Source: Candidatus Dormiibacterota bacterium (lineage in GTDB: Bacteria > Chloroflexota > Dormibacteria > Dormibacterales > Dormibacteraceae). From it: a stretch of DNA of 44,244 nucleotides. Numbering within the stretch: the first letter of the stretch is position 1; every line of letters starts with the position of its first letter. The position numbers and the translations under genes are program-made. The notes beneath the pieces were generated by a model. That model made no database searches, was not told where the DNA came from, and worked only from the letters and a program-made list of their open reading frames with translations. The stretch is taken from NCBI GenBank assembly GCA_036565325.1, contig DATCNF010000133.1, positions 1 to 44,244 on the forward strand. Reading direction: 5' to 3'. Shown in pieces: positions 9,897-32,865 of this stretch.

Positions 9897-10681
9897 GCGT
9901 ATGAGGAGGTCGTCGGCTTGGCCTGCGGCTCGCCGGTCAGCCGCTTCACGACCTCGGTCGCGTTGGAGCGCAGGAAGACGGCGTCCGACGCCACGTTCAG
10001 CATCCGGAAGCCCTCGTCGCGCCAGGCGGCGGCGGTCTCCACGGTGCCGCAGTGGATGCCGGCCACGATGCCGCGGCGGTCACAGGCCTCGCGCACCGAG
10101 CTGATCAGGCGCCGGTGCTCGGGGTCGGTGGGATTGGCGCTGGGTGGCAGCCCGTGCGTGACGGCCATGTCGTTGGGCCCGACGTACACCGCGTCGATCC
10201 CAGGCACGGCCAGGATGGAGTCGAGGTCGGCGAGGGCCGCCGCCGTCTCGACCATCACGGCGCAGACCACGTCGCGGTTGGCCGACTGCGGGCTGAAACC
10301 GTCGACCTCGAGGGCGGCGCGGATGGGGCCCCAGGACCGGTAGCCCTGCGGCGGGTAGCGGCAGGCGCCGGTCGCGGCCCGGGCGTCCGCGACCGAGTTG
10401 ACCATGGGCACGACCACGCCCTGGGCCCCGGCGTCGAGCGCCTTCATGATGTGGTCGGGCTGGTTCCAGGGCACCCGCACGAACGCCGGCGTGCCGGTCC
10501 GCGACAGGGCCTGGAGCATGGGGACCATGGCGTCGTAGCCGATCAGGCCGTGCTGCATGTCGAGGCAGACCCAGTCGAAGCCGGCCATCCCCATCAGCTC
10601 CGCGCTGAAGGGCGAGGGGATCACGCACCAGCCGCCGACCGAGGCGCCGCCGCGGTCCCAGACCTCGCGCAGGCGGGCCAT
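9893..10681 (-). CDS. HpcH/HpaI-family 2-keto-3-deoxy-acid aldolase
   Basis: 262 aa. GGWCVIPSPFSAELMGMAGFDWVCLDMQHG, VRVPWNQPDHIMKALDAGAQGVVVPMV and VMVETAAAL are typical of the family. TGATG overlap with the upstream gene. Confidence 0.85.
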   Translation of the reverse strand: MARLREVWDRGGASVGGWCVIPSPFSAELMGMAGFDWVCLDMQHGLIGYDAMVPMLQALSRTGTPAFVRVPWNQPDHIMKALDAGAQGVVVPMVNSVADARAATGACRYPPQGYRSWGPIRAALEVDGFSPQSANRDVVCAVMVETAAALADLDSILAVPGIDAVYVGPNDMAVTHGLPPSANPTDPEHRRLISSVREACDRRGIVAGIHCGTVETAAAWRDEGFRMLNVASDAVFLRSNATEVVKRLTGEPQAKPTTSSYA

Positions 10682-11637
10682 CAGACCGGCACCTGGCGGC
10701 GGCCCACGCCGTTGACGACGTTGAAGGGCTCCTCCCCGTCGAGGACGCGCAGGAGGTTGGCGCGCACCATCTCCAGCGCGCGGGCCCGCGCCTGCTCGGT
10801 GGCGCCGCCGGCGTGCGGTGACAGGAAGACGTTCTCCATCGCCCGCAGCGGGGAGTCGGCCGGCAGCGGCTCGACCTCATAGACGTCGAGCGCGGCACCC
10901 GCCAGGTGGCCCTCGCGGAGCGCCGCGACCAGCGCGGCCTCGTCCACGATCGGGCCCCGAGCCGCGCTGACCAGGAACGCGCCCGGCTTCATGGCCGCCA
11001 GGGCGCGGGCGCCGATCAGGGCTCTGGTGTCATGGTCCAGCGGCGTGTGGACGGTCACGATGTCCGCCTCCGCCAGCAACTGGTCGAGCGGGACCTGGCG
11101 CGCGCCCAGGAAGCCGCGGGGGATGACATCCGTGAACAGAACCCGGCAGCCGAAACCGCTGAGCCGGGCGGCCACCGCCGCGCCCACGTTGCCGAGGCCG
11201 ATGATCCCGACCGTCTGGTAGCCCAGCTCCCGGCCGGTCAGCTCGGAGAAGGGCCAGCCGCCATCGTGCATCTTGCGGTCGCCATAGGCGCCGCGGCGCA
11301 GGAGGTTGAGCATGGCCATGACCACCCAGTCGGCGACCGCGTCCCGGTTGTAGGCGGCGCAGTTGGCGACCGGGATCCCGAGGTCGGCCGCCGCCCGATG
11401 GTCGATGGCGTCGAAGCCGACGGCGGGCACCTGGATCAGCCGGCAGCGGACCAGGCGCTCGAGGATCGGGCGATCGAGGCGGTGCTGATGGCGGTTGTCG
11501 CTGATCACCACCTCGGCGTCCGGCGCCAGCGCCAGCAAGGCGTCGGGGGCGGGCGGATCCGGCGCCGTCACGACGTCGATGGAACGACCCTCGAGCCAAC
11601 CCCTGACGACGGCCGGGTCCCACGGGCTCAGCAGCAT
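10681..11637 (-). CDS. D-isomer-specific 2-hydroxyacid dehydrogenase, NAD(P)-binding
   Basis: Rossmann motif GIIGLGNVGAAVAARL, then SAARGPIVDEAAL and the catalytic-His region FLSPHAGG. ATG 11637 (MLLSPWD) is preferred over the ORF-track start at 11769, which overlaps the upstream gene end. Confidence 0.85.
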   Translation of the reverse strand: MLLSPWDPAVVRGWLEGRSIDVVTAPDPPAPDALLALAPDAEVVISDNRHQHRLDRPILERLVRCRLIQVPAVGFDAIDHRAAADLGIPVANCAAYNRDAVADWVVMAMLNLLRRGAYGDRKMHDGGWPFSELTGRELGYQTVGIIGLGNVGAAVAARLSGFGCRVLFTDVIPRGFLGARQVPLDQLLAEADIVTVHTPLDHDTRALIGARALAAMKPGAFLVSAARGPIVDEAALVAALREGHLAGAALDVYEVEPLPADSPLRAMENVFLSPHAGGATEQARARALEMVRANLLRVLDGEEPFNVVNGVGRRQVPV

Positions 11638-11716
11638 CACGCGGGCGGCCAACGCTGGTGAGGCTACCAGCTTCGCCGAGCCCGGGTCGGCGGCTTGCGC
11701 CTGCCGGGGAGGAGGT

Positions 11717-12463
11717 CTAGCCGCCGGCGGTGTTGCGCCCGCCGGTGGCCACGAAACTGACGCAGTCACCCTCGTTCTTGAAGGGGGTGCCCTGGTCGTC
11801 GGTGACTTGTTGCCAGCCGCCGTCCCTGCAGTCCGCCTTGGAGGCCGGGGTCGGCGGCGGCGGGGGCGCCGCGGCGGTCAGCGTCGCCGCCACGTTGAGC
11901 TCGAAACCGCGGATGGTGAACGGGAAGGCGGTGGTCGAGCCGGCGGTAGGGGTCGGTGTGCCGCCCGCCATCTGGTAAAAGTCGCCCGTGAAGTTCAGGG
12001 TGAACGTCGCGCAGCCCGCGATCCCCGTGACGCGGAGCCCGAGCAGGTCTCCGGGCTGCACCGCGATCGGCTGGGCCAGCGTGAACGTGTTCACGCCGGA
12101 GCCCGCCGGGACGGTCTGAGCCGGGCTGATGCCGACCAGGTCGTAGCTGCCGGCAGTGGTGGTTGGGCGCCACACCTCCAGCGCCAGGTTGCCATCGAAA
12201 GAGGCGGACGCCTGGGTGCTCCAGTCGGTGATCACCCAACTGCCGGCGGGCACCACGTAGCTCGGCCCGGCCGAGGCCACCTGGACCGTGTCCATGCCAG
12301 TGCCGCCCGCGCACCCGCTGCCGTCCTTTGCCTGTCCGATGACCGTGGCCGCCGCCGCGCTGGAGGGCGCCCCCAGCAGCCCGAGTGCCGCCATCGCAGC
12401 GGCCGCCGCCAGCCGACCAAAGATGCGATTCCGTCTCCCACTAGCCATAGTGGCCATGGACAA
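11717..12463 (-). CDS. Hypothetical secreted protein (Tat-like signal, Pro-rich linker, C-terminal two-Cys module)
   Basis: N-terminus GRRNRIFGRLAAAAAMAALGLLGAPSSAAAA, a beta-rich body, a PPPPPTP linker, then CRDGGWQQVTDDQGTPFKNEGDCVSFV. High GC3 in this frame. Confidence 0.6.
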   Translation of the reverse strand: MSMATMASGRRNRIFGRLAAAAAMAALGLLGAPSSAAAATVIGQAKDGSGCAGGTGMDTVQVASAGPSYVVPAGSWVITDWSTQASASFDGNLALEVWRPTTTAGSYDLVGISPAQTVPAGSGVNTFTLAQPIAVQPGDLLGLRVTGIAGCATFTLNFTGDFYQMAGGTPTPTAGSTTAFPFTIRGFELNVAATLTAAAPPPPPTPASKADCRDGGWQQVTDDQGTPFKNEGDCVSFVATGGRNTAGG

Positions 12464-15524: not shown

Positions 15525-16757
15525 GTGGCGGTCGCGGAAGCCCAGACGCTCGAGCGCCTGAACCGGCTGATCGGCCGCCTGCGGGCGCGCGTCCCCTTCT
15601 ACCGGGAGCGCCTCCCGGAGGCACCACTTGAGTCCCTCGAGCAGTTCGGCGAGCTGCCCTTCACCACCAAGGACGACTTCCGCCAGAACTATCCGTACGG
15701 CCTGCTCGCGGTGCCGCTGGAGGATGTGGTGCGGGTGCATGCTTCCAGCGGCACCACCGGCCGGCCCGTGCTCACGGCGTACACGCGCGGCGACCTCGAC
15801 CTGTGGGGCGAGTGCATGGAACGTGTGTACCGGGCCGGGGGCGTGGGTCCTGGCGACGTCGTGCAGAACGCTTACGGGTACGGGCTCTTCACCGGCGGCC
15901 TCGGCTTCCACCTCGGTGCCGAGCGCCTCGGCTGCACGGTGATCCCGACCAGTTCCGGGGTCACCCAGCGCCAGGTCATGCTGATCGCCGACCTCGGCAC
16001 CACCGTCCTCACCTGCACGCCCTCCTACGCGCTGGTGCTGGCGGAAGCCATCGCCGAGGAGTCCTCGCGCCCGCTCCTCAAGCTGCGGGTCGGCTTCTTC
16101 GGCGCCGAGCCCTGGACCGACGGCATGCGCCGCCAGATCCAGTACGGCCTCGGGCTGGAGGCCTTCGACATCTATGGCCTGACCGAGCTCGGGGGCCCGG
16201 GCGTGGCCGTGGAATGCCACCAGCACAACGGGCTGCACATCTCCGAGGACCACTTCTACGCAGAGACCGTCGACCCCGAAACCGGCCGGCCGCTGCCGCG
16301 CGGGGAGCCCGGCGAGCTGGTGCTCACCAGCCTCCGGCGGGAGGCCTCACCCGTGCTGCGCTATCGCACGCGGGACCGCACGATCCTGACCGAGGAGCCC
16401 TGTCCCTGCGGCAGCCCGTTCGTGCGTATGGTCAAGGTCCACGGCCGGACCGACGACATGATCGTGGTCCGGGGCGAGAACGTGTTCCCCAGCCAGATCG
16501 AGGGGATCCTGCTCTCCATCGAGGGCCTGACCGCGAACTACCAGATCGTGGTCGACCGCGAGGCCAAGCAGCTGGACAGCGTGGAGGTCGTGGTCGAGGC
16601 CGCCCCGCACACCGACCACGCCAGCCTCCAGCGCGAGGCCGAGGAGAAGATCCGGGAGACCATCGGCCTGCGGGCCGAGATCAGCATCCTGCCCCCGGGC
16701 GTGCTGCCCCGCAGCGAGGGCAAAGCAAAGCGCGTGATCGACCGACGTTCGCTATAA
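15525..16757 (+). CDS. Phenylacetate-CoA ligase family (PaaK-like) adenylating enzyme
   Basis: 410 aa. LPFTTKDDFRQNYPYGL, VHASSGTTGRPV, CTPSYALVLAE, YRTRDRT, RGENVFPSQIE, and a C-terminal KAKRVIDRR are typical PaaK/F390-synthetase motifs. Confidence 0.9.
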   Translation: MAVAEAQTLERLNRLIGRLRARVPFYRERLPEAPLESLEQFGELPFTTKDDFRQNYPYGLLAVPLEDVVRVHASSGTTGRPVLTAYTRGDLDLWGECMERVYRAGGVGPGDVVQNAYGYGLFTGGLGFHLGAERLGCTVIPTSSGVTQRQVMLIADLGTTVLTCTPSYALVLAEAIAEESSRPLLKLRVGFFGAEPWTDGMRRQIQYGLGLEAFDIYGLTELGGPGVAVECHQHNGLHISEDHFYAETVDPETGRPLPRGEPGELVLTSLRREASPVLRYRTRDRTILTEEPCPCGSPFVRMVKVHGRTDDMIVVRGENVFPSQIEGILLSIEGLTANYQIVVDREAKQLDSVEVVVEAAPHTDHASLQREAEEKIRETIGLRAEISILPPGVLPRSEGKAKRVIDRRSL

Positions 16758-17641: not shown

Positions 17642-19087
17642 GTGGCCACCGGTCTGGTCGAGCGCCTGTCAGAGATCGTCGGGAACTCGTGGCTGGTCCG
17701 CGACCTCGAGGCGCTGGAGGAATACGGGCACGACGCCACCTTCATGGAGTCGGCGCCCCTGTGCGCGGTGAGGCCGGCCTCCACCGAGGAGGTGGCCGCG
17801 GTGGTGCGCGAGGCGGCGGCCGCCGGCGTGCCCGTGGTCGCCCGCGGGGCCGGGACCTCGCTGGTCGGCGGGCCGGTGCCGCTGGCCGCGGGCGTGGTGG
17901 TGAGCCTGGACCGGCTGACGGGCCTCGAGATCGATGCGCCGAACACGGTTGCCGTGGTGGGCGCGGGCGTGATCACGGCCGCCCTGGACGAGGCGGCGGC
18001 CGCGCATGGGCTCATGTACCCGCCCGACCCCGCCTCCTACGAGATGTCGACGATCGGCGGCAACGTGGCCTGCAACTCGGGCGGCATGCGCTGCGTGAAG
18101 TACGGCGTGACCGCCGACTACGTGATCGGGATGACGGTCGTGCTGGCAACCGGCGAGGTGCTGAGGCTGGGCGGGAAGCTGCGCAAGCGGGCGTCCGGGT
18201 ACCGCACCATGCAGCTCTTCATCGGCTCCGAGGGGACGCTTGGGATCGTGACCGAGGTGATCGTCAAGCTGATCCCCCGGCCGCGCTTCGTGGCCACCGC
18301 GATGGTCGGCTTCCGGCGCCTGGAGGACGCCGGCAGTGCCGTGGCGCGGGCCCTGGCGGCGGGTCACTTTCCGGCGGCCATCGAGATCCTGGACCGGGGC
18401 TCGCTGGAGCTGGTCGCCGAGAAGCTGCCGCCCGGCTTCGAGCCCGAGCTGCAGGCGGTGCTGATCGTCGAGCAGGACGGCAACGACGAGGAGTTCGTGC
18501 AGCTCGACCTCATGAAGATGGTCGAGGTCCTGGACGGCGCCGACAATAGGATCGCCCAGTCCTCTCTGGAGCGCGAGCGGCTCTGGGAGGCGCGGCGCTC
18601 GTTCGGCAAGGTGCTGATGTCGATGCCCAAGAACTTCTTCGCCGAGGACGTGGCGGTGCCGATCGCGGAGATCCCGGAGATGATCCGGCGGGTGCAGGAG
18701 CTGGCGCGCGCGACCGGGTTGCGGATCGTCACCGTTGGGCATGCCGGCGATGGCAACCTGCACCCCACGATCCTGTTCGAGGACTCGCAGCGCGGCCTGG
18801 TCTCGGGGGCGGCGGCGCAGATCTTCAGGGACGCGCTGGCGCTGGGCGGCTCGATCTCCGCCGAGCACGGGCTGGGGGCGCTGAAGCGCGATTACGCGGA
18901 GCTGGAGCACGGCGCGCTGGGCATGGAGCTGATGCGCAGGTTGAAGCAGGCCCTCGACCCGGCGGGCATCTTGAACCCGCACAAGGTCTTCCCCGAACGG
19001 CCGGCGGACGACGCCTTCCTGGAGTCGATGCCGGGCTGGCTGCCGGACCCTGAGCGGCGCCGCCGCAAGGCGGAGCTCGGGCTCTGA
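17642..19087 (+). CDS. FAD-linked oxidase (GlcD / D-lactate dehydrogenase family)
   Basis: 481 aa. PCMH-type FAD-binding domain (VVARGAGTSLVGGPVP, GGNVACNSGG) and a C-terminal FAD-oxidase domain (SAEHGLGALKRDY). GTG start 6 nt after TATCCT. Confidence 0.9.
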   Translation: MATGLVERLSEIVGNSWLVRDLEALEEYGHDATFMESAPLCAVRPASTEEVAAVVREAAAAGVPVVARGAGTSLVGGPVPLAAGVVVSLDRLTGLEIDAPNTVAVVGAGVITAALDEAAAAHGLMYPPDPASYEMSTIGGNVACNSGGMRCVKYGVTADYVIGMTVVLATGEVLRLGGKLRKRASGYRTMQLFIGSEGTLGIVTEVIVKLIPRPRFVATAMVGFRRLEDAGSAVARALAAGHFPAAIEILDRGSLELVAEKLPPGFEPELQAVLIVEQDGNDEEFVQLDLMKMVEVLDGADNRIAQSSLERERLWEARRSFGKVLMSMPKNFFAEDVAVPIAEIPEMIRRVQELARATGLRIVTVGHAGDGNLHPTILFEDSQRGLVSGAAAQIFRDALALGGSISAEHGLGALKRDYAELEHGALGMELMRRLKQALDPAGILNPHKVFPERPADDAFLESMPGWLPDPERRRRKAELGL

Positions 19088-20070: not shown

Positions 20071-20898
20071 TCAGAGCCGCGCCAGCTCCTCTTCGACGCG
20101 CGCCAGCAGGCGGTCGGCGGCGTAGTCGTCGTACGCGCGGCGGTCGTAACACAGCGTGAGGAAACAACGTCCCTCGCGTATCGCTCCTTGCGCGAGGATG
20201 CCGGGCTCGCCCGGGTTCACCAGCGGAAACGCCATCAGGGCGCCGCCGCCGCCGACATTGGTGATCGTGAAGCCCCCGCCGGTCACCTCGTCCGGCCGGA
20301 GTCCCGCTGCCCGCGCCCGCGCTGCCAGATCGGCGATCCGGTCAGACACCTGGTCGAGGTCGAGCGCCGGCACGTCCTTCACCACCGGCACCAGCAGGCC
20401 GCCCGGCACCTCCACCGCCACGCCGACATTGGCGACCGGCACCGCCGCTGCCAGCGCCTTTACGAAGTAGGACGTCCAGCTCCGCGCACCGCGCTGGATG
20501 TGGGACACGTCGACCTCGCGCACGCAGGCGCCCTGGGGGATGCGTGCCCGCGCCTCCTGCATGCGCTCGGCGATGCGCCGTCGCATCGAGCTGAGGCCGC
20601 CGGCGGGCGCCGGGGCCACGGCGGCAGGCGGGGGCTGCGTCATCGCGTGGTGGACGCCGACCCGTGGCCCGTCATCCCCGATCCGCGCGATGACCTGGCC
20701 CACCGGCACCGTCTCGCCGGCCGCGACCAGGATCTCCAGCACCCCGTCCGCCGGCGCCTCCAGCTCGGAGTTGACCTTGTCGGTCTCGATCTCGACCAGC
20801 GGCTCGCCCTTGCGCACGGCCTCCCCGGCCTGCTTGAGCCAGCGCGAGACGGTTCCCTCGACCAGGGTGTCGGCCAGCTTGGGCAGCTCGACGTCCAT
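20071..20898 (-). CDS. Lipoyl-domain E2-like acyltransferase with shortened core, no PSBD, and Arg replacing the catalytic His
   Basis: Lipoyl domain with IETDKV. A Pro/Ala linker runs straight into the core (SSMRRRIAERM, GLLVPVVKD, GGGFTITNVGG). The position of DHRxxDG reads YDRRAYDD (Arg codon 20140-20142). Confidence 0.8.
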   Translation of the reverse strand: MDVELPKLADTLVEGTVSRWLKQAGEAVRKGEPLVEIETDKVNSELEAPADGVLEILVAAGETVPVGQVIARIGDDGPRVGVHHAMTQPPPAAVAPAPAGGLSSMRRRIAERMQEARARIPQGACVREVDVSHIQRGARSWTSYFVKALAAAVPVANVGVAVEVPGGLLVPVVKDVPALDLDQVSDRIADLAARARAAGLRPDEVTGGGFTITNVGGGGALMAFPLVNPGEPGILAQGAIREGRCFLTLCYDRRAYDDYAADRLLARVEEELARL

Positions 20899-20923
20899 GA
20901 CGCCGAGATTATCCGGGCGCCGC

Positions 20924-21313
20924 TTATGAGCTACTCGAACGCCGTCTGACCCAGATCAGCGCCGGCGCCCAGGTCAGGGCGCCGGCTGCCAGGAGCGCCC
21001 ACTCCAGCCCGCGTACGGCGGGCATCTCGACCAGGGCGCCGAAGATGCACATCGACGCCGCGCCCGCCAGCAGGAAGGCCCCCGGGAAGAGCGCCCAGGC
21101 GCTGTACCAGGGCGGGGCGCCTTCGCGGTCGCTGAGGCGGTCGGTGAGGATCACGGCCAGCGCCACCAGCAGCGCGGGCACGCTCATGCTCAGGGCCCAG
21201 GGCGCCTGGACTCCGCCCGCCATGGCCGCGATCAGGGGCTGGATGGCGCAAAGCGTGAGCCCAGCCGGAACCGTGAAAGCGAGCAGCCGAAGGGTGGCCG
21301 AGGCGGGGGGCAT
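20924..21313 (-). CDS. Small hypothetical membrane protein (about 4 TM)
   Basis: ATG 21313 overlaps the upstream stop (TGATG) and lies 7 nt after GGGGAGG. 129 aa, hydrophobic, high GC3. The upstream part of ORF 20924..21673 is shadow. Confidence 0.65.
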   Translation of the reverse strand: MPPASATLRLLAFTVPAGLTLCAIQPLIAAMAGGVQAPWALSMSVPALLVALAVILTDRLSDREGAPPWYSAWALFPGAFLLAGAASMCIFGALVEMPAVRGLEWALLAAGALTWAPALIWVRRRSSSS

Positions 21314-22803
21314 CAAACAACCTCCCCGCTCGCCGGGGAGGTCCCTCGCGGCGCAGCCGCGAGGGGGTGGGGACGTTCCGCCTCTAGCGACCGCTTGAGC
21401 ACGGCGAGAAAGCGCCCGGCGTCGGCGCCGTCGACGGCGCGGTGGTCGACCGACAGGGCCAGGTAAGCCTTGCCGTCGCGCACCGCTCCCACCCGGAGCG
21501 TCGCGCTCTGGCCCGGGCGCACTGCGGGGAGGCCGAGCAGGGAGCCGGAGCTGCCGTAGTCGACCAGGGTGAAGGTGCCGCCGCCGCGGGCGGGGGAGAG
21601 GAGGCCGAGGTCGAGGTCGATCGAGACCTGGTCGTGGAGCAGGATGCCGTCCCAGGTGAAGGTGGCGTTGCACTGGGGGACCGCCGCGCAGGCCTCGGCG
21701 ACCGCGGCCACCACCGCCTCCAGGTGGGCTTCGGGGAGTTCCACTTCGACGACGCTGGTTGCCTCGGGGATGGTGGTGTCGTACGGCTCCCCCACCCCAA
21801 CCCTCCCCGGGGGGGAGGGGGTCTGTTGCATCACCTTTCTAGCCGCCTCGGCGATTCCCCTTCGGTTAGGGATCACCGCGTCTTCCATGCGGTCGGCCAC
21901 CGGGATGCCCCCGATGTCGGGCATGGCGACGCGGGCGGGCGGGACGCGGAGCACGCCCGCTTCGGCGGCCAGGGCGCACAGCTCGGCGCCCAGGCCCATG
22001 GTCAGCGTGTCCTCGTGGACCACCAGGAGGCGGCCGGTCCGGCGCAATGCATTCAGGAGGCCTTCGCGGTCGAGCGGCAGCAGCCAGCGCAGGTCGAGCA
22101 CCTCGGCCTCGATCCCTTCGGCGGCCAGCTCCTCGGCCGCGGCCAGCGCCTCGTGCAGCATCATCCCCCAGCCCACGATGGTCAGGGCGTCGCCGGCGCG
22201 CGCGACCCGCAGCCGCCCGTCGTCGACCACGTGCTCGCCCTCCGGCACCGGGCCGCTGATCGCCCGGTAGGTGCGCTTGTGTTCCAGGAAGAGCACCGGG
22301 TCGGGGTCCCGGATGGCGGCGGTGAGCATCCCCTTGGCGTCGTCCGGGAACGACGGGGCCATCACCTTCAGCCCGGGGACGTGCGCGTAGAACGCCTCCA
22401 CGCTCTGGGAGTGGTAGGGGCCGCCCCGGAACCCGCCGCCGTAGGCGGTGCGCATGACCAGCGGGCACGTCCAATCGCCGCCGGTGCGGTAGCGGAGCCG
22501 GGCGGCTTCGCCGGCCAGGTGGTCCATGGCGGCGTGCATGAAGTCGGCGAACTGGATCTCAGCCACCGGCCGCAGGCCGCGCATGGCGATCCCCATCGAG
22601 ATGCCTGAGATCGCCAGCTCGGCCATCGGCATGTCGATGACGCGCTCGGGCCCGAAGCGGTCGAGCAGCCCCTCGGTGGCGCGGAAGACGCCACCCAGGC
22701 GCCCGATGTCCTCGCCCAGCAGGATGACGCGCTCGTCCCGCGTCATCTCCTCCGCGAGAGACTCGCGGACCGCGTCAAGAAGTGTGAGCGTACGTGTGCT
22801 CAA
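21313..22803 (-). CDS. 2-oxoacid (or acetoin) dehydrogenase E1 beta subunit fused to a partial E2 acyltransferase core domain
   Basis: Residues ~1-325 are E1 beta (LLGEDIGRLGGVF, MPMAELAISG, PSFPDDAKGML). A linker PSPPGRVGVG follows, then ~140 aa with GGTFTLVDYGS and LSVDHRAVDGADAGRFL (His codon 21442-21444). The last ~18 aa are encoded by repeat copy B. TTG start overlaps E1 alpha by 29 nt. Confidence 0.8.
   Translation of the reverse strand: MSTRTLTLLDAVRESLAEEMTRDERVILLGEDIGRLGGVFRATEGLLDRFGPERVIDMPMAELAISGISMGIAMRGLRPVAEIQFADFMHAAMDHLAGEAARLRYRTGGDWTCPLVMRTAYGGGFRGGPYHSQSVEAFYAHVPGLKVMAPSFPDDAKGMLTAAIRDPDPVLFLEHKRTYRAISGPVPEGEHVVDDGRLRVARAGDALTIVGWGMMLHEALAAAEELAAEGIEAEVLDLRWLLPLDREGLLNALRRTGRLLVVHEDTLTMGLGAELCALAAEAGVLRVPPARVAMPDIGGIPVADRMEDAVIPNRRGIAEAARKVMQQTPSPPGRVGVGEPYDTTIPEATSVVEVELPEAHLEAVVAAVAEACAAVPQCNATFTWDGILLHDQVSIDLDLGLLSPARGGGTFTLVDYGSSGSLLGLPAVRPGQSATLRVGAVRDGKAYLALSVDHRAVDGADAGRFLAVLKRSLEAERPHPLAAAPRGTSPASGEVV
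21317..21375 (+). repeat. SD/anti-SD hairpin repeat, copy B, inside the 3' coding tail of the E1beta-E2' gene
   Basis: H1 CCTCCCCG-ctcgc-CGGGGAGG (21321-21341). H2 CCCTCGCGGC-gca-GCCGCGAGGG (21343-21365), then GGTGGGGACG. Relative to copy A, both stems carry a two-sided A:T to G:C change. Confidence 0.8.
21789..21820 (-). repeat. SD/anti-SD hairpin repeat, copy D (inverted relative to copy C), in frame as the E1beta/E2' linker
   Basis: Plus strand: CCCCACCCCAACCCTCCCCGGGGGGGAGGGG, matching the reverse complement of copy C. Minus strand: CCCUCCCC/GGGGAGGG hairpin, then GGGAGG, 6 nt, in-frame GTG (21795), plus four G-runs. Confidence 0.7.
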
Positions 22804-23722
22804 GCACGTCCTCGGGGTCGCCTTCCGGCTGACCCTCCGCCCACTCGGCCGCCTCGGCGGCCACCGTCATCGCCTCCTCGTCGACAGCGTCGGTCCGCGC
22901 TGGGTCCAGCTGCTGACGCAGCAGCAGAAGGGGGTCGCGCCGCCGCGCCTCCTCGACCTCCTCGCGCGTCCGGTAGCGCGTGTCGTCGTCGTTGGACGTG
23001 TTGGGCAGGAACCGGTAGCAACGCGCCTCGATGTACGTCGGCCCCTCTCCGGCTCGGGCCCGCGCGATCGCGCGCTCGGCTGCATCGTGCATCGCCGCCA
23101 CCTCCATGCCGTCGACCGACTCCCCTGGGATGCCGTAGCCGGCGGCACGGGTGGCGATCTCCGGCTGGGCCGTCTCCAGGCGGGAGGGAACCGACTGCGT
23201 GTAGAAGTTGTTCTCGACGCAGAACACGCAGGGCAGCCGGTGGATGGCGGCGATGTTCATCGCCTCGTGCACCTCGCCCTTCTGGGCGCCGCCGTCTCCG
23301 AAGCTGATCCAGGTGACCTGGTCGGTGCCCAGCAGCTTCGATCCCCAGGCCACCCCGACGCCGTGGGTGACGTGGTTGGGCTGCGGGCCCTGCAGGCTGA
23401 CGATGCCGTGCCGGCGCGACCCCCAGTGCGCGTAGGGCTGGCGGCCGTGCGCGCAGGGGTCGTCGCGGCGCGCGAAGAAGTGCAGGAACACCTCGCGCGG
23501 GGTCAGCCCGAGCGCCAGCATCGCCGCCAGGTCGCGGTAGTGCGGGGCCACAAAGTCGTGGCCCGCGCGCAGGGCCAGCCCGTAACCGACGCCGATCGCC
23601 TCGTGCCCCGAGCTGGGCACGGCGAAATGCGCCCGTCCCGACCGCGCCAGCCGCCACATGCGCTCATCCATCTGGCGGGCTGTGGACATGACCTGGTAGG
23701 CGCGGTCGAGATCAAGAGTCAC
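22775..23722 (-). CDS. TPP-dependent 2-oxoacid (or acetoin) dehydrogenase E1 alpha subunit
   Basis: TPP motif GDGGAQKGEVHEAMNIAAIHRLPCVFCVENN. GTG 23722 overlaps the methyltransferase stop (GTGA). The upstream part of ORF 22775..23998 is shadow. Confidence 0.9.
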   Translation of the reverse strand: MTLDLDRAYQVMSTARQMDERMWRLARSGRAHFAVPSSGHEAIGVGYGLALRAGHDFVAPHYRDLAAMLALGLTPREVFLHFFARRDDPCAHGRQPYAHWGSRRHGIVSLQGPQPNHVTHGVGVAWGSKLLGTDQVTWISFGDGGAQKGEVHEAMNIAAIHRLPCVFCVENNFYTQSVPSRLETAQPEIATRAAGYGIPGESVDGMEVAAMHDAAERAIARARAGEGPTYIEARCYRFLPNTSNDDDTRYRTREEVEEARRRDPLLLLRQQLDPARTDAVDEEAMTVAAEAAEWAEGQPEGDPEDVLEHTYAHTS

Positions 23723-24552
23723 CGGCGTGTGATCAGCACCTGCGTGGACCCCTGAAGCTCGATCCGCCCCTCGCCGACCCGGGCGCGCACAACTTCCACC
23801 GCCCGCCTCGCGACCCGCTCCCGCTCCGCGGGCTCCAGCGCCTCCAGCCGCCAGGCGCAGGCCCACCAGCCGCAGGACTTGGCGACCAGGTCCTCCGGGC
23901 TTTCGTAGTGGATGGCTTCCTCGAAGGTGAGGACCAGCGGCTCCCGAAAACCCGCCGCCACCAGTGCCGCCCGCGCCCGGTCGGGATCCATCAGGCACTC
24001 GATCGTGGCCGTGCGGTCGGGCGTGGCCGGGGGCGCGGGAATCCCGGCCAGCGCCTCCTCGATGAGCCGGGCGGCCTCGCGGCCGTGGGAGCGGGCGGGG
24101 AGGCTGGCCGCGAACAGGCCGCCGTCGCGCAGCACGCGCCGCGCCTGCCAGAGCGCGCGCAGGAGGTTGGGGCAGAACTGCAGGCCGTGGCCGCAGGCCA
24201 CGGCGTCGAAGGTGGCGTCCGGGAACTCGAGCTCCTCGATGTCCATCTTCAGCACTTCGACCTGGCTGGGCGCCGCCTGGCGCAGGAGGTCGAGCATGCC
24301 GTCGGCGAGGTCCACCGCCACCACCTGGCCCGCAGGCCCCACGGCCTCCGCCAGCGGCAGGGTGAGCGTGCCCGGGCCGCAGGCCAGGTCCAGCACCCGG
24401 TCGCCCGGCCCCGCGCCCAGCGCCTCGACGACGTGGAACCGGCCGCGGTGCTCGCGGGGGTCCTGGATGCCCATGACGCGGTCCCGGTAGGCCTCCGCGT
24501 GGCGGCTGAAGACGCCGGCGAAAACCTCCTTCGAGCTCAGGGCGCCCGCCAT
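23719..24552 (-). CDS. Class I SAM-dependent methyltransferase (UbiE/Methyltransf_11-like)
   Basis: 277 aa. SAM motif I VLDLACGPGTLTL, then VVAVDLADGML and LRDGGLF. Confidence 0.85.
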   Translation of the reverse strand: MAGALSSKEVFAGVFSRHAEAYRDRVMGIQDPREHRGRFHVVEALGAGPGDRVLDLACGPGTLTLPLAEAVGPAGQVVAVDLADGMLDLLRQAAPSQVEVLKMDIEELEFPDATFDAVACGHGLQFCPNLLRALWQARRVLRDGGLFAASLPARSHGREAARLIEEALAGIPAPPATPDRTATIECLMDPDRARAALVAAGFREPLVLTFEEAIHYESPEDLVAKSCGWWACAWRLEALEPAERERVARRAVEVVRARVGEGRIELQGSTQVLITRR

Positions 24553-27556: not shown

Positions 27557-28237
27557 CTAGTTCGTGGGCTTGGCGCCGAAGAGCCGCCGGATGCGGTCCC
27601 AGAGCACCAGGAAGAAGAGGCTCAGCGCATTGACGGGCTTGGCGGTGGCCATCGGTCGCGGCGCGACCGGTGCGACCTGGGCGGGGGTGGCCGGCGCCGC
27701 CGTGGCCGCCGCGGCATCGGCGCCGGTGGCCGCCGCTTCCGCGACCGCCGGTGCTTCAGCCGCGCTCACTTCGATGGCGCCGGGCGCCCCCTCGCCTTCG
27801 AGGTTGGACTTGATGCAGGCGGCCATCTGGCTGACCAGGCGCCGGGAGACGTCCTCCATCACGCCGCGCCCGAAGTTGGCGACCCGGCCGGCAACTGTGA
27901 AGTCGGTCTCCAGCTTGACCGTGGAGCCGGCGCCGTCGGCCAGCACGCTCATGGTGGCGGTGGCGTTGGCGGAGCCGGGACCGGTGGTCTCGCGACCGCT
28001 GGCTTCCAGCTTCGCGATCCGCGCCGCGTCGTCCTTTTCGATGATCTTGGCGGTGCCGTTGTAGGCCACCGTGATGGGGCCGACCTTGATCTTCACCTTG
28101 CCCTTGAAGGTGGTCGGGTCGACTACCTCGGAGAGCTCGGCGCCCGGCATGCAGCCGACCACGCGGTTGATGTCGACCAGGAATGCAAAAACCGTGTCCG
28201 GCGGGGCGGCGACTGGGAACTGGTTCTCGATCTGCAT
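27557..28237 (-). CDS. coxG: CoxG/SRPBCC-family protein with Ala/Pro-rich linker and C-terminal hydrophobic tail
   Basis: N-terminal ~145 aa MQIENQFPVAAPPDTVFAFLVDINRVVGCMPGA... is CoxG-like. It is followed by an AP-rich low-complexity stretch and VNALSLFFLVLWDRIRRLF. Confidence 0.8.
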   Translation of the reverse strand: MQIENQFPVAAPPDTVFAFLVDINRVVGCMPGAELSEVVDPTTFKGKVKIKVGPITVAYNGTAKIIEKDDAARIAKLEASGRETTGPGSANATATMSVLADGAGSTVKLETDFTVAGRVANFGRGVMEDVSRRLVSQMAACIKSNLEGEGAPGAIEVSAAEAPAVAEAAATGADAAAATAAPATPAQVAPVAPRPMATAKPVNALSLFFLVLWDRIRRLFGAKPTN

Positions 28238-28258
28238 CAGGCCTGCGCCCTAAGGTAC

Positions 28259-28285
28259 TGCGAAATATACTGACCACGTTTCGCA
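28259..28285. promoter_or_regulatory. Inverted repeat TGCGAAA-N13-TTTCGCA enclosing TATACT/TATATT hexamers in the coxG/coxS divergent spacer; candidate operator plus promoters
   Basis: 7-bp perfect arms at 28259-28265 and 28279-28285. TATACT at 28266-28271. This is the only clearly AT-richer spacer in the window. coxS has its own SD (GGGAGG at 28362-28367, 6 nt before the ATG). Confidence 0.45.
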
Positions 28286-28373
28286 CGTTCGTCTGGTCTG
28301 GGGGTATAGCCAAGGGCGAACCTGCTATGCCGCGCTCTTCAACTTGTCCACCCACAACAGCGGGAGGTAGCGG

Positions 28374-28904
28374 ATGAAGCACAAGGTCGCGACCACCATC
28401 AATGGGAGGGGCCGGCAAGACGAAGTCGAGGCTCGACTCCTCCTCGTCCACTACATACGCGACGTCGCCGGCCTGACCGGCACCCATGTCGGGTGCGACA
28501 CCAGCCAGTGCGGCGCCTGCACGATCCTGGTCGATGGCAAGGCCATCAAGTCCTGCACCATGTTCGCCGTCCAGGCCGAGGGGCGCCAGCTCACGACCAT
28601 CGAGGGCCTGGCCGACGGGGACACGCTGCATCCCATCCAGCAGGCCTTCTGGGATGAGCACGGACTGCAGTGCGGCTACTGCACGCCCGGCTTCATCATG
28701 GCCGCCAAGTACCTCCTCGACACCAACCCCAGCCCCAGCGACGACGAGATCCGCAAGGGCCTGGAAGGCAACCTGTGCCGCTGCACCGGCTACGTCAACA
28801 TCATCAAGGCCGTGAAGACGGCCTCCCAGGTCATGGGTGGCGCGCAGCAGGCGAAGCCTGCGACCGCCGGCCAGCCGGTGGGCCAGCCCACGGCAGGGAG
28901 CTAG
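28374..28904 (+). CDS. coxS: Molybdenum hydroxylase small subunit, [2Fe-2S]-binding (CoxS/CutS-like)
   Basis: Both Fe-S cluster motifs are present: [10 protein letters not shown] and CGYCTPGF...CRCTGY. Confidence 0.95.
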
Positions 28905-28908
28905 AGCG

Positions 28909-31449
28909 ATGGCGATCAGCAAGATGATCGGCGCCAAGATCCATCGCCGCGAAGATCCCCGGCTGGTCTCCGGCGGCGGCCGCTACATGGACGACTTCAA
29001 ACGGCCCAACACCACCTACGCCGCTTTCATCCGCAGCCCTTACGCGCACGCCAAGATCCGGATGATCGACCCCACCGAGGCCAAGCAGGCGCCCGGGGTC
29101 GTGGCCGTGTTCACCGCGAAGGACTTCGAAGGCGTGCTGATGGGCCCGGCGCCGGTCGCGCCGGCCTTCGTGGCCGAGAAGCACACGGTTCCCGACCGGC
29201 CGCCGCTGCCGCTCGACGAGGTCGTCTACCAGGGCCAGCCCGTGGCCATGGTGATCGCCGAGTCGAAGGCCGAGGCCGCCGACGCGGCGGCGCTGGTCCA
29301 GGTCGACTACGAGCCGCTGCCCGCGGTCATGGACCTCGAGAAGGCCCTCGACCCCAGCAGCCCCAAGGCGCACACCGCGCTGCCCGACAACATCGCCTGG
29401 GACCTGGTCTACAACGCTGACGCCGACTCGAGCTTCGCCGAGGCCGAGGTCACCGTGAAGGAGCGGATCCTGCAGCAGCGCCTGGCGCCGACTCCAATGG
29501 AGACGCGCAGCGTGATGGCCGAGTGGAGCCCACACGAGGGCTCGATGACGCTCTGGCTCTCCAACCAGGGTCCCCACTTCATCCGCCTCTTCGTGGGCGG
29601 CGCGCTGGGGCTTCCCGAAAACCGCATGCGCGTCATCTCGCCCGATGTGGGCGGAGGCTTCGGCGCCAAGATCTGCCCCTACCCCGAGGACTACCTGGTG
29701 CCGGGGGCCGCCAAGATTCTCAAGCGACCGGTCAAGTGGACCGAGAGCCGCACCGAGTCGATCCAGGTCACCACCCACGGCCGCGGCCAGATCTTCGACG
29801 TCGAGGTCGCCGGCATGAAGGACGGCACGCTGCTGGGCATGAAGGTCACCCAGTACCTGGACGCGGGGGCCTACATCGGCACCTTCGGCGCCTTCCAGGC
29901 CTGCGCCTGCCTGCTGGCGGGTGGCGGCTACAAGTGGAAGCAGATCGCCGCCCGCACCATCGGCGTGCTCACCAACAAGGTTTCCACCGATCCCTACCGC
30001 GGCGCCGGCCGGCCCGAGGCCACCCACCTGGTGGAGCGCATGGTCGACGTCTTCGCTCGCGAGATCGGGATGGACCCCGCGGCGGTCCGCAAGAAGAACT
30101 TCGTCCAGCCCGGAGACTTCCCCTACACCCAGAACTTCGGGCTGGTCATGGACTCCGGCGACTACGAGCGCTCGCTCGACAAGGCGATGCAGATCGTCGG
30201 CTACGAGCAGGTGCGCAAGGAGCAGGAGGAGGGCCGTAAGCAGGGCCGCTATATCGGCATCGGGCTCTCCACCTGGATCGAGATCTGCGGCTTCGGCCCG
30301 GCGGCCGCCACCGCCCCGGCCACCGGCGGGATCGGGCTCGTGGAGTCGGCACAGGTACGCGTGTATCCCACCGGTTCGGTGACGGTCTGGACCGGCACCC
30401 ACTCGCACGGCCAGGGGCACGAGACCACGTTCAGCCAGATCGTGGCCGACACCCTGGGCATCCCCTACGACCAGATCGAGATCAAGCACGGCGACACCGG
30501 CGAAGGCACCGCCTTCGGCTACGGGACCTACGGGTCGCGCTCGCTGGCCGTCGGCGGGATGGCGATCAAGATGGCCTCGCAGAAGGTCGTCGACAAGGCC
30601 AAGCAGATCGCCGCCCATTCCTTCGAGGCGGCCGAAGAGGACGTCGTCTTCGAAGGCGGCGAGTTCTACGTCAAGGGCTCGCCCGACAACCGGCGCAAGA
30701 TCCAGGAGGTCGCGTTCGAGGCCTACGGCGCCGCGCTGCCGGAAGGCATGGAGCAAGGGCTGGAGGCGGTCGCCTACTTCGATCCGCCCAACTTCGTGTG
30801 GCCCTTCGGCGCCCACATCTGTGTGGTCGAGGTGGACATCGAGACGGGCGCCGTCAAGATGCTGAAGTACGTGGCCGTGGACGACTGCGGCAACGTGATC
30901 AACCCCATGATCGTGGAGGGCCAGCTGCACGGCGGAATCGCGCAGGGCATCGCCCAGGCCCTCTTCGAAGAAGTGATCTACGCGGAGGACGGCAGCCTGC
31001 GCACGGGCACGCTGCTCGACTACGCGATCCCCACGGCCAACGAGATGCCGCCGCTCACCCTAGACAGCACGGTGACCCCCTCGCCGACCAACGCGCTCGG
31101 CGTCAAGGGCATCGGTGAGGCGGGCACGATCGCGGCCAGCGGGGCCGTGATCAACGCCATCGTGGACGCGCTTTCGCCCCTTGGCGTGCGCCACGTCGAC
31201 ATGCCGGCCAGCCCGGACCGGCTCTGGAAGCAGCTGCAGGAGCACCGCACCGGCCTCGAGGGCTACCACACGGTGGCCGTCGCCGACACCCCCGAGGTTG
31301 ACGACGCGCCGCGCAAGGGCGGGCCCGAGTCCGAGCTGCCCGGCAGCCTGGACGAGGGCGAGATCGGCAAGACCGGCGGCAAGGCCGAGCCCGGCTCGGA
31401 AGGCTCGCCGCAGGAGGGGCCGCGCCACCAGAAGGACTACGACCGATGA
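28909..31449 (+). CDS. Molybdenum hydroxylase large subunit (xanthine dehydrogenase family; form-II CoxL-like) with ~65-aa acidic/Gly/Pro C-terminal extension
   Basis: ATG 28909 lies 8 nt after AGGGAG. Aldehyde-oxidase/XDH a/b-hammerhead and MoCo-binding domains are present. The active-site loop reads DPYRGAGRPEA (about 29989-30021). GIGEAGTIAA lies near the C-terminus. Confidence 0.9.
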   Translation: MAISKMIGAKIHRREDPRLVSGGGRYMDDFKRPNTTYAAFIRSPYAHAKIRMIDPTEAKQAPGVVAVFTAKDFEGVLMGPAPVAPAFVAEKHTVPDRPPLPLDEVVYQGQPVAMVIAESKAEAADAAALVQVDYEPLPAVMDLEKALDPSSPKAHTALPDNIAWDLVYNADADSSFAEAEVTVKERILQQRLAPTPMETRSVMAEWSPHEGSMTLWLSNQGPHFIRLFVGGALGLPENRMRVISPDVGGGFGAKICPYPEDYLVPGAAKILKRPVKWTESRTESIQVTTHGRGQIFDVEVAGMKDGTLLGMKVTQYLDAGAYIGTFGAFQACACLLAGGGYKWKQIAARTIGVLTNKVSTDPYRGAGRPEATHLVERMVDVFAREIGMDPAAVRKKNFVQPGDFPYTQNFGLVMDSGDYERSLDKAMQIVGYEQVRKEQEEGRKQGRYIGIGLSTWIEICGFGPAAATAPATGGIGLVESAQVRVYPTGSVTVWTGTHSHGQGHETTFSQIVADTLGIPYDQIEIKHGDTGEGTAFGYGTYGSRSLAVGGMAIKMASQKVVDKAKQIAAHSFEAAEEDVVFEGGEFYVKGSPDNRRKIQEVAFEAYGAALPEGMEQGLEAVAYFDPPNFVWPFGAHICVVEVDIETGAVKMLKYVAVDDCGNVINPMIVEGQLHGGIAQGIAQALFEEVIYAEDGSLRTGTLLDYAIPTANEMPPLTLDSTVTPSPTNALGVKGIGEAGTIAASGAVINAIVDALSPLGVRHVDMPASPDRLWKQLQEHRTGLEGYHTVAVADTPEVDDAPRKGGPESELPGSLDEGEIGKTGGKAEPGSEGSPQEGPRHQKDYDR

Positions 31450-31627
31450 CCCGGGCCGCACCGGGCCAGCCGGACGTCGACGACGCTCCCCGCCGCGGGG
31501 GGCCGCAGTCGCCGCTGCCGGGAAGCCTCGACGAGGGCCAGATCGCGGGCACCGGCGGCTCCGCCGAGCCCGGTTCCGAAGGCTCGCCGCAAGAAGGACC
31601 ACGCCACCAGGAGGATTACGACCAGTG
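31270..31627 (+). repeat. Tandem duplication, 2 x 179 bp, spanning the coxL 3' end and the junction to coxM
   Basis: GTTGACGACGCG... at 31297 recurs as GTCGACGACGCT... at 31476, and the stop codons at 31447-31449 and 31626-31628 are 179 nt apart. The encoded peptides match at about 42 of 52 aligned residues (my count). Confidence 0.85.
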
Positions 31628-31628
31628 A
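31446..31628 (+). CDS. 60-aa ORF paralogous to the CoxL C-terminal tail (acidic, Gly/Pro-rich)
   Basis: ATG overlaps the coxL stop (ATGA), and its own stop overlaps the coxM GTG (GTGA). Sequence: ...DVDDAPRRGGPQSPLPGSLDEGQIAGTGGSAEPGSEGSPQEGPRHQEDYDQ. Divergence from copy 1 is mostly synonymous in the last 14 codons. Confidence 0.5.
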   Translation: MTRAAPGQPDVDDAPRRGGPQSPLPGSLDEGQIAGTGGSAEPGSEGSPQEGPRHQEDYDQ

Positions 31629-32431
31629 TACCCGCTGCGTTCGAATACGCCCGCGCCTCCTCGGTGCAGGAGGCATCCGACCTGCTCGGCAAGTTCGGCG
31701 AGGACGCCAAGGTCCTCGCCGGCGGCCACAGCCTGATCCCGCTGATGCGGCTGCGCCTGGCGCAGCCGTCCGCGCTCGTGGACATCACCGGCGTCAAGGA
31801 GCTCTCCTACATCACGCGGGAGAACGGCAAGCTCCGGATCGGCGCCCTCACCCGCCACGTGGAGATCCACAACAGCGAGGAGATCAAGCAGAGCCTGCCG
31901 ATCCTGGCCGAGGTGGCCTCCGAGGTGGGGGACAACCAGGTGCGCAACATGGGCACCATCGGCGGCGTCATCGCGCACGCCGACTCGGCCGGCGACTACC
32001 CGACGCTCTGCGTCATGCTCGACGCCGAGATCGTCACCAACAAGCGGCGGCACGCCGCGCACGAGTTCTTCCAGGACCTCTTCACGACCCCCCTGGAGAA
32101 CGACGAGATCGTGTGCGAGGTCGTCTTCCCGGTGGCCAGCGGGGCGCACAAGTACATCAAGTTCCGGCGCCGCCTCTTCGACTGGGCGATCGTGGGCGCG
32201 GCCGCCCAGCGCACCGACCAGGGGTGGCGGATCGGGCTCACCAACGTGGGGCCGACGCCGGTCCGGGCGGTGGCGGTCGAGCAGGCGCTCGGCCAGGGTG
32301 CCTCGCCTTCAGAGGCTGCCGAGCACGCCTCGGACGGGCTCAACCCGAGCGGCGACATCCGGGCCACCCCCGAGTACAAGAAGCACCTGGCGAGGGTGCT
32401 GACACGACGCGCCATCGAACAGTCTCAATAG
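31625..32431 (+). CDS. coxM: Molybdenum hydroxylase medium subunit, FAD-binding (CoxM/CutM-like)
   Basis: GTG 31625 gives VIPAAFEYARASSVQEASDLL...AGGHSLIPLMRLRL, a typical CoxM N-terminus. The upstream part of ORF 31181..32431 is a frame shadow over the coxL tail. Confidence 0.9.
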   Translation: MIPAAFEYARASSVQEASDLLGKFGEDAKVLAGGHSLIPLMRLRLAQPSALVDITGVKELSYITRENGKLRIGALTRHVEIHNSEEIKQSLPILAEVASEVGDNQVRNMGTIGGVIAHADSAGDYPTLCVMLDAEIVTNKRRHAAHEFFQDLFTTPLENDEIVCEVVFPVASGAHKYIKFRRRLFDWAIVGAAAQRTDQGWRIGLTNVGPTPVRAVAVEQALGQGASPSEAAEHASDGLNPSGDIRATPEYKKHLARVLTRRAIEQSQ

Positions 32432-32466
32432 ACGCCGGACATGGGTGGGGGCCACGGCTGCACGCC

Positions 32467-32829
32467 GTGGCCCTCGCCACGGCGGCGCCGGGCACGGTGC
32501 TGATCGCCGTCCGGCTCTGGAGCGCGGCCGCCGGGGTAGCGGCTTCGGCGTTCCGGATGCTCGGGCCGTACGTGCACCCGGCTGCGATCACCCTCGTCGT
32601 GCTGGCATTGGCCCTCCTCGCACTGGCCGTCCCGGCCTGGCGCGGCAACCCCTTGGCGGTGGCCGCCGGCACCGCGCTGCTGGTGGTGGTCGCGCTGGTC
32701 AGCGCCCAGCTGGTCGTCGCCGACCGCTCCGCCTACCTCCTGCTGGGGGTGGCGCTGCTGGGCGCCGCCCCAGGCGCGTTCCTGGTGAGCGGCCCGGCGT
32801 TCTTCGACCCCGCCCGCACCCGGCGCTGA
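32467..32829 (+). CDS. Hypothetical small membrane protein
   Basis: The frame-1 tail of ORF 32113..32829 is hydrophobic (3-4 helices) with high GC3. GTG 32467 is the first plausible start after the coxM stop. Confidence 0.4.
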   Translation: MALATAAPGTVLIAVRLWSAAAGVAASAFRMLGPYVHPAAITLVVLALALLALAVPAWRGNPLAVAAGTALLVVVALVSAQLVVADRSAYLLLGVALLGAAPGAFLVSGPAFFDPARTRR

Positions 32830-32865
32830 GTTAGCCCCGGCACAGGTCCGGGTAGCCTTACTGCT

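Follow-up and report, generated by a model that had tools for sequence, protein, structure and literature searches.

An E1 beta chain fused to a minimised acyltransferase core, and a His-less lipoyl partner: a possible split-site 2-oxoacid dehydrogenase in Dormibacterota and Eremiobacterota

The window analysed here is the whole 44,244-nucleotide stretch of contig DATCNF010000133.1 (assembly GCA_036565325.1), which derives from a Candidatus Dormiibacterota bacterium. A tightly packed operon on its minus strand encodes a 2-oxoacid dehydrogenase module of unusual composition: an E1 alpha chain, an E1 beta chain that continues in frame into a minimised E2 (acyltransferase) core, termed E2c, and a separate lipoyl protein, termed E2L, whose own minimised E2 core carries Arg at the position of the catalytic His (Table 1). 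E1 is an alpha/beta-type enzyme dependent on thiamine diphosphate (ThDP), with an E1_dh alpha chain and a beta chain matching PF02779 and PF02780, and the ThDP motif GDG-X26-NN can be read in the E1 alpha translation. The true start of E1 alpha is a GTG at 23722, which overlaps the stop codon of the upstream methyltransferase gene (GTGA); a longer, 407-aa open reading frame (ORF) for the same gene (22775..23998, minus strand) is an over-extended mechanical listing and was rejected, as homologues measure 312-315 aa. E1 beta starts with a TTG at 22803 and overlaps the 3' end of E1 alpha by 29 nt.

Table 1. Genes and protein segments of the module and its operon in the window (pLDDT, predicted local distance difference test; PSBD, peripheral subunit-binding domain; SAM, S-adenosylmethionine).
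Feature	Position	Strand	Remarks
SAM-methyltransferase	23719..24552	(-)	first gene listed of the tightly packed operon
E1 alpha, 315 aa	22775..23722	(-)	PF00676 (E1_dh), E = 9e-63
Fusion ORF, E1 beta-linker-E2c	21313..22803	(-)	496 codons, uninterrupted, one frame
E1 beta part, residues 1-326	21826..22803	(-)	TTG start; PF02779 and PF02780
Fusion linker, residues 327-348	21760..21825	(-)	joins E1 beta to E2c
E2c, residues 349-476 (128 residues)	21376..21759	(-)	minimised CAT-fold acyltransferase domain
C-terminal tail of the fusion and stop codon	21313..21375	(-)	unconserved; pLDDT <50
Hydrophobic ORF, 129 aa	20924..21313	(-)	between fusion and E2L; about four hydrophobic segments
E2L, 275 codons	20071..20898	(-)	lipoyl domain, linker and minimised E2 core
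E2L lipoyl domain, residues 1-75	20674..20898	(-)	PF00364 (Biotin_lipoyl) at residues 2-73, 63.8 bits
E2L linker, residues 76-100 (25 residues)	20599..20673	(-)	disordered, no PSBD
E2L core, residues 101-275, and stop codon	20071..20598	(-)	minimised, His-less CAT-fold
Two GNAT genes		(-)	same operon, listed after E2L

A preliminary description of the locus, made from the letters alone, had read the fusion ORF as a complete E1 beta followed by the C-terminal half of an E2 core. Pfam recovers all three domains in the one frame, namely Transket_pyr (PF02779) at residues 7-180 (145.7 bits), Transketolase_C (PF02780) at residues 196-317 (111.1 bits) and 2-oxoacid_dh (PF00198) at residues 408-475 (51.7 bits against a cut-off of 23). 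The best Foldseek matches of the E1 beta part are the E1 beta chains 1w85_B and 1um9_B of pyruvate and branched-chain 2-oxoacid dehydrogenases (PDH and BCKDH), with 44-46% identity and E = 1e-30; the search with the whole fusion model returned E1 beta and transketolase-type matches only and is thus no independent check of the E2c fold. In profile-profile alignments (hhalign) against a reference of 65 canonical E2 catalytic domains, which includes E. coli SucB and AceF and has 237 columns, E2c covers columns 26-234 with a probability of 99.7%. While the assignment of the tail as an E2 core is thereby upheld, its designation as a half is not: the N-terminal 47 residues of E2c by themselves match the canonical segment from H3 through beta-F (probability 95%, E = 2.6e-8), and E2c is therefore a minimised whole core.

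The minimisation of E2c affects defined structural elements. The N-terminal exchanged strand and helix H1 are absent, as the alignment begins at column 26 and the model contains no helix ahead of strand 349-355. A 20-residue deletion takes out H2, a 32-residue deletion takes out the end of beta-F together with H4, and the beta-hairpin ahead of the DHR strand has become shorter. What remains includes the end of H3 (P..N), beta-C/D and the complete DHRAxDGA..A..FL segment, and a nearly invariant His (H360) is found at the start of H3, where H2 is deleted. The AlphaFold2 model has a pLDDT of ~90 over residues 349-476, and the linker falls below 50 at residues 336-348. Mean pairwise identity is 69% for E2c, near the 72% of the E1 beta C-domain, compared with 44% for the linker (60 homologues; length 18-43 residues, median 20.5) and 20% for the C-terminal tail (0-27 residues).

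The E1 beta-E2c fusion is genuine and conserved. Over linker and tail, the GC content at third codon positions (GC3) is 0.91 in frame and drops to 0.54 and 0.77 in the alternative frames. Scanning one genome per species yielded ten true relatives (L003-L012), which are metagenome-assembled genomes of Dormibacterota and Eremiobacterota (Elarobacter), and in 8 of these 10 species-representative loci a single in-frame tblastn high-scoring segment pair runs from E1 beta residue 1-4 to residue 474-490. The exceptions are L011, which is L001-like, and L001 itself, long-read contigs with frameshifts throughout E1 alpha and E1 beta. A protein search queried with the full ORF returned at least 120 clusters (90% identity), originating from JGI, ENA, NCBI and Logan assemblies, that combine PF02779, PF02780 and PF00198; among the matches listed all are 467-538 aa long, and the last of the 120 still has E ~1e-202. 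The junction is in frame also in short fragments on small contigs. The reading of the locus as a fusion free of any separating stop codon or frameshift is thus borne out well beyond the window.

In L001 (4075..6536) and L011 (4022..6400), multiple frameshifts extend through E1 alpha, E1 beta and E2c, and gene callers accordingly output a spurious antisense ORF and an apparently stand-alone E2 fragment of 153 or 211 aa; assembly indel errors, rather than pseudogenisation, are the probable cause. Further candidates for stand-alone mini-E2 genes were discarded: the window's own match (P0001) ends at a contig end, many others hold in-frame E1 beta, and P0023 and P0034 come from long-read contigs that are frameshifted across the whole locus.

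Searching 1.84 billion representatives with the tail gave 17 matches at E <= 1e-10, which were mostly short fragments and included no full-length fusion, lower scores being no better than those usual for ordinary E2 proteins. Members of the family are abundant in soil metagenomes, but its phylogenetic range is narrow, the architecture being found in Dormibacterota and Eremiobacterota. Its members are filed under names such as “E1 component beta subunit”, “transketolase C-terminal domain-containing protein”, “2-oxo acid dehydrogenase subunit E2” and “2-oxoglutarate dehydrogenase E2”.

The lipoyl protein E2L accompanies the fusion. It lies near it in the window, in L001 and L002 and in all ten relatives, usually directly downstream, and in two further genomes it is either directly downstream or 3.8 kb away; across loci, the stop and start codons of the fusion and E2L genes often overlap. 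With a median length of 277 aa, the E2L family is as abundant as the fusion family. The lipoyl domain is modelled as all-beta and bears the lipoyl-lysine Lys41 (codon 20776..20778) in the motif IETDKV, the pattern [ED][TS][DE]K being present in 117 of 120 homologues. The adjoining linker is variable (16-43 residues, median 25; mean identity 26%) and modelled with a pLDDT <50 at residues 77-102. No PSBD (PF02817/E3_binding) was matched in E2L by Pfam at E <= 0.01, and a hidden PSBD in either linker was rejected, because Pfam gives no match and the linkers are too short and modelled as disordered. Mean pairwise identity amounts to 68% for the lipoyl domain and 66% for the E2L core. E2c and the E2L core are hence both under purifying selection, and the linkers and the tail vary.

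The E2L core is matched by PF00198 in two stretches (108.5 bits) and aligns with columns 11-230 of the canonical profile (hhalign probability 100%); its model (residues 104-274, pLDDT ~90) superimposes on solved E2 cores with Foldseek TM scores of 0.65-0.70. It keeps H1 (MRRRIAERM, with R106, R108, A110 and E111 invariant), H4, Thr213-Asn214 and the NP..ILA segment. A 14-residue deletion has shrunk H2 to an 8-residue loop with one nearly invariant Arg (R136, codon 20491..20493), and an 18-residue deletion removes the end of H3 and beta-C/D. The core ends at helix H6 (column 230), and most homologues have a C-tail of length 0. The conserved residues of the C-terminal 3-10 helix knob, which makes the trimer-trimer contacts in 24- and 60-mers, were found in neither E2c nor E2L. 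Both Pfam and the profile alignment therefore agree with the earlier portrayal of E2L as a separate E2 with a lipoyl domain, a shortened core and no PSBD.

The two cores have lost complementary catalytic residues. In canonical E2 enzymes the catalytic Ser/Thr is the residue that follows FTI in the motif FTI[ST]N, as checked on the E. coli genes (T323 of E2o in mature numbering, S551 of E2p); for E2o, the position is supported by mutagenic primers (PMC5986005). E2c has an intact DHRAVDG motif with His454, and its codon at 21442..21444 is indeed CAC; at the canonical Ser/Thr-Asn it has Val414-Asp415 (codons 21559..21564). Among the matches listed, DHRA[VIL]DG occurs in 120 of 120 sequences, and Val or Ile occupies the Ser/Thr position in 119 of 120. 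In E2L, the profile-profile alignment places YDRRAYDD on the canonical YDHRLIDG, such that Arg253 (codon CGC at 20140..20142, as described) takes the position of the catalytic His. YDR is found in 117 of 120 E2L homologues, the other three having no match to the motif, and Y251, D252 and R253 are invariant in 54 aligned sequences. At the Ser/Thr position, E2L retains Thr213-Asn214 (Thr codon 20260..20262), of which N214 is invariant and T213 nearly so. FTLVD of E2c and FTITN of E2L both align on the catalytic FTI[ST]N strand, which confirms that the Thr strand is kept in the lipoyl protein and altered in the fused domain. The reciprocal loss (His kept and Ser/Thr lost in E2c, Thr kept and His lost in E2L) was first noticed in the window and is nearly universal in both families.

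Each core also has an invariant face that departs from the canonical sequence, the VDYG strand in E2c and CYDR...AD.LL in E2L, and these would fit a conserved structural interface between the two proteins. E2c and E2L moreover share the same 12-residue shortening of the hairpin, and their mutual alignment is gapless from GGxFT to the C-terminus. These shared features suggest a common origin: most likely, a single E2 that had already been shortened was duplicated, and the two copies then underwent reciprocal loss.

A division of residues between subunits has a structural precedent. Cryo-electron microscopy of E. coli E2p revealed an active site shared by two neighbouring subunits: one contributes H603' and D607', and the other contributes S551, forms the entrance for lipoamide and binds the lipoyl domain at the N-terminal tip of its H1 (PMC8421416). 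The statement in the preliminary description that such active sites form across subunits is therefore right for E2 enzymes. E2L keeps the set of elements on the S551 side (H1, Thr-Asn), and E2c keeps the set on the His/Asp side. Mixed trimers are likewise known, as human E2 and its catalytically inactive paralogue E3BP form E2-E2-E3BP heterotrimers (PMC466950).

Several characterised systems share individual features with the module. OdhA/KGD, the actinobacterial E2o-E1o enzyme, also combines a ThDP-dependent E1 and a CAT-fold domain on one chain; the fused protein has neither lipoyl domain nor PSBD and receives the lipoyl group in trans from a separate protein, and the assembly is small rather than a 24- or 60-mer (PMC10415282), a size that would be predicted for the present module too. 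In OdhA, however, a full-size and catalytically complete E2o sits at the N-terminus of a homodimeric E1o, whereas here a truncated domain of 128 residues sits at the C-terminus of the beta chain of a heterotetramer-type E1, which matches PF02779/PF02780 only. Furthermore, the lipoyl donor of OdhA is AceF, a fully active E2p, and the donor E2L has Arg for the catalytic His. The mammalian E2/E3BP core of PDH (PMC466950) includes a lipoyl-bearing, pseudo-catalytic E2 paralogue in mixed trimers, a co-assembly that is only putative for E2c and E2L; yet E3BP carries an E3-binding domain and pairs with an E2 that is complete and self-sufficient, and the loss is one-sided instead of reciprocal, while neither protein of the module has a PSBD.

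Fusions of E1 to E2-derived domains have been described as well. In alphaproteobacterial PdhB (NF008854, 464 positions), E1 beta is fused to a domain that otherwise belongs to E2; the E2L lipoyl domain matches positions 4-103 of this model and the E1 beta part of the fusion matches 140-463. There, the fused domain is an N-terminal lipoyl domain, unlike the C-terminal acyltransferase core reported here. A domain-architecture survey (bioRxiv 10.1101/2020.07.24.212647) recorded an LB-PS-E2-E1o fusion in Thermoleophilia, which is also a non-canonical covalent E1-E2 link but retains lipoyl domains, PSBD and a full E2 core joined to E1o. Compared with canonical E2 proteins of PDH, BCKDH and 2-oxoglutarate dehydrogenase, both cores are unambiguous PF00198 members by score and fold, but each is ~50-100 residues shorter, one lacks the Ser/Thr and the other the His, and PSBD and C-terminal knob are missing. 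Within the literature searched, no description of an E1 beta-E2 core fusion or of a reciprocal loss of E2 catalytic residues was found.

Based on these sequence comparisons, the reading we favour, at about even odds, is that the module constitutes a small, PSBD-less 2-oxoacid dehydrogenase of Dormibacterota and Eremiobacterota, with a mixed E2c-E2L core, composite active sites and a tethered E1. Held slightly less firmly is the stricter proposal of an obligately heteromeric E2, in which the domain fused to E1 beta would contribute His and Asp, and the His-less lipoyl protein would contribute the Thr, the helix for lipoyl docking and the greater part of the substrate channel, without a PSBD and without an icosahedral or cubic core. 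E2c and E2L would co-assemble as a mixed CAT-type oligomer, most simply a heterotrimer. Because the E. coli E2p interface splits His/Asp and the Ser/lipoyl entrance between neighbours, a composite site could form in such a mixed core, and an acyl-transfer channel would arise only where the Thr/H1/lipoyl-entrance face of E2L meets the His/Asp face of E2c. The fusion would tether E1 covalently to the core and thus make a PSBD unnecessary, and the lipoyl arm of E2L would move back and forth from the E1 site to the composite site. A small particle, below a 24- or 60-mer, is expected, since both cores are without the knob residues. E3 would be encoded elsewhere and act without a dedicated docking domain. 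A pairing of Arg253 (E2L) with Asp415 (E2c) may be envisaged, but is a guess.

The most serious competitor is an arrangement akin to OdhA, in which homotrimers of E2c are the sole acyltransferase and E2L is a lipoyl carrier, whose pseudo-catalytic core trimerises alone or docks elsewhere (compare AceF for OdhA and E3BP in mammals). OdhA itself shows that an E1-fused CAT domain with lipoyl groups supplied in trans is viable, the E2c motif is complete in every one of the 120 matches listed, and the modelled domain is compact. The chemistry is also compatible with a lone His: the complex activity retained in E. coli E2o is 45% for T323A, 2% for H375A and 60% for H375W (PMC5986005), so that activity falls only ~2-fold without the Thr and ~50-fold without the His. 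However, no functional E2o assembly was obtained with an OdhA/KGD construct devoid of the N-terminal strand and the helix after it, a failure that its authors ascribe to the missing elements (PMC10415282). E2c is without the same strand and helix, which renders a self-sufficient E2c homotrimer doubtful, and H1 is the element on which the lipoyl domain docks in E2p. This arrangement would furthermore leave unexplained why H1, H4 and Thr-Asn are nearly invariant in a protein that is a mere carrier, why Arg is fixed there in place of the His, and why the VDYG strand is conserved in E2c. We judge it plausible but less likely than the mixed core, and clearly ahead of the other alternatives.

Two further readings appear improbable to a similar degree. 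In one, E2c is a non-catalytic plug that replaces the PSBD by anchoring E1 covalently in an E2L core, and E2L is weakly active with its Arg, or another enzyme transfers the acyl group. The heavy truncation of E2c would agree with such a role, pseudo-catalytic core-binding domains such as E3BP exist, and some substitutions of His375 in E. coli E2o stay active; yet the saturation screen at this position recovered Trp and Gly as active and Arg was not among the active substitutions (PMC5986005), and a domain used for docking only is unlikely to hold D-H-R-A-x-D-G unchanged in all 120 matches listed. In the other, no acyl-coenzyme A (acyl-CoA) is produced: the acyl group is released or handed to a different acceptor, and the CAT-like domains act in some other transfer reaction. 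This would accommodate the deletion of H2 with its conserved Arg in E2c, its reduction in E2L, and the varying neighbour genes, which include GNAT acetyltransferases, CoA ligases and an aminotransferase. The motifs of the pantetheine channel (DHRxxDG, GGxFT, NP..IL) are nevertheless otherwise kept across the E2c/E2L pair, and no conserved gene for an alternative acceptor lies beside the module in both phyla. Finally, a fusion created by a sequencing frameshift or a lost stop, with both cores as degenerating remnants, has the broken L001 and L011 contigs in its favour and is refuted by in-frame junctions in 8 independent genomes and in at least 120 clusters of varied source, by the GC3 values, by purifying selection at the level of domains and by the L001 frameshifts, whose spread across E1 alpha and E1 beta as well is a typical sign of assembly error.

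The split-site proposal itself has to be weighed against several observations. The single-chain models of E2c and E2L each look like self-contained domains. The oxyanion Ser/Thr is dispensable in at least one E2 (E. coli E2o T323A, PMC5986005), and given the activity left in this mutant, E2c could act without the Thr of E2L, so that complementation is not chemically obligatory. A cyclic trimer has three interfaces, of which at least two would be non-canonical. Binding of CoA is uncertain too: an Arg of helix H2 binds the CoA 3'-phosphate (Arg480 in CgE2p) and forms a conserved column in the alignment of canonical E2 domains, but E2c has no H2, and E2L retains only a loop with one conserved Arg in its place. 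Lastly, no gene for an E3 partner was found. In agreement with the preliminary description, none is present among the Pfam-scanned candidate ORFs of the window, where the only large unscanned stretch holds ABC-permease-like ORFs, and none lies within 10 kb of the module in three other genomes.

Neither gene context nor subfamily models assign a substrate: the neighbours differ between phyla, and the E1 chains score below the NCBIfam cut-offs for PDH. E1 beta reaches 297 bits with the PDH E1 beta model NF006667 (cut-off 321) and 285.6 with NF008854 (cut-off 454), and E1 alpha reaches 270.8 with TIGR03181 (cut-off 411). A Liv-type ABC transporter, Ldh_2 and thiolase are the neighbours in one phylum, versus methyltransferase, GNATs and FAD oxidase in the other.

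The layout of the locus varies among relatives. The 129-aa hydrophobic ORF, whose ATG overlaps the stop codon of the fusion (TGATG), has no match in a Pfam scan and was predicted as a gene in L002. A comparison of 12 related loci showed it only in the window/L002 and in L012 (60% identity), and it is likely to be an insertion confined to certain lineages, outside the core of the module. The gene order is not fixed, as E1 alpha comes after the E1 beta-E2c gene in L008 and L087. In L087 (10001..16015), E2L lies 3.8 kb downstream, behind three unrelated genes, and is followed with a 4-nt overlap by a gene for an FAD-linked oxidase (PF01565/PF02913). An oxidase of the same family is encoded in the window at 17642..19087, convergent to the operon.

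Other genes of the window belong to diverse pathways. An operon of the CO-dehydrogenase/xanthine-dehydrogenase family at 27557..35990 comprises genes for CoxG, a [2Fe-2S] subunit, a molybdopterin large subunit (870 aa), an FAD subunit, an AAA ATPase, the VWA protein CoxE and XdhC, and a similar cluster adjoins the module in L087. On the minus strand at 7558..11769 are genes for a dihydroxy-acid/6-phosphogluconate dehydratase-family protein, an RraA-like aldolase, an HpcH/HpaI aldolase and a D-2-hydroxyacid dehydrogenase; they may form a sugar-acid or 2-oxoacid pathway, which could supply 2-oxoacids and is a candidate link to the module only. Four AMP-binding genes of the acyl-CoA ligase type, two of them PaaK-like (PF14535), are located at 15525..16757, 37803..40687 and 41748..43082, and an enoyl-CoA hydratase gene is found at 43081..43947, which makes the neighbourhood rich in CoA-thioester metabolism.

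The long-standing view of 2-oxoacid dehydrogenase complexes places a self-sufficient, homo-oligomeric E2 core at the centre, with E1 and E3 recruited through a PSBD, and actinobacterial OdhA and trimeric E2p are recent, much-noted exceptions. If the proposal is true, the module would represent a third, independent departure, characterised by an E1 tether on the beta chain, cores of ~130 and ~175 residues and divided catalytic residues; it would be the first E1 beta-E2 core fusion as well as the first reciprocal partition of E2 catalytic residues. Since current annotations are generic, metabolic reconstructions of Dormibacterota and Eremiobacterota probably mislabel the proteins of the module. 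Should the split site be real, these bacteria would provide a natural minimal system for what the CAT-fold needs in assembly, lipoyl docking and CoA binding, and for how E3 works without a docking domain, and the pair of E2c and E2L would offer a clear example of subfunctionalisation inside an oligomeric active site.

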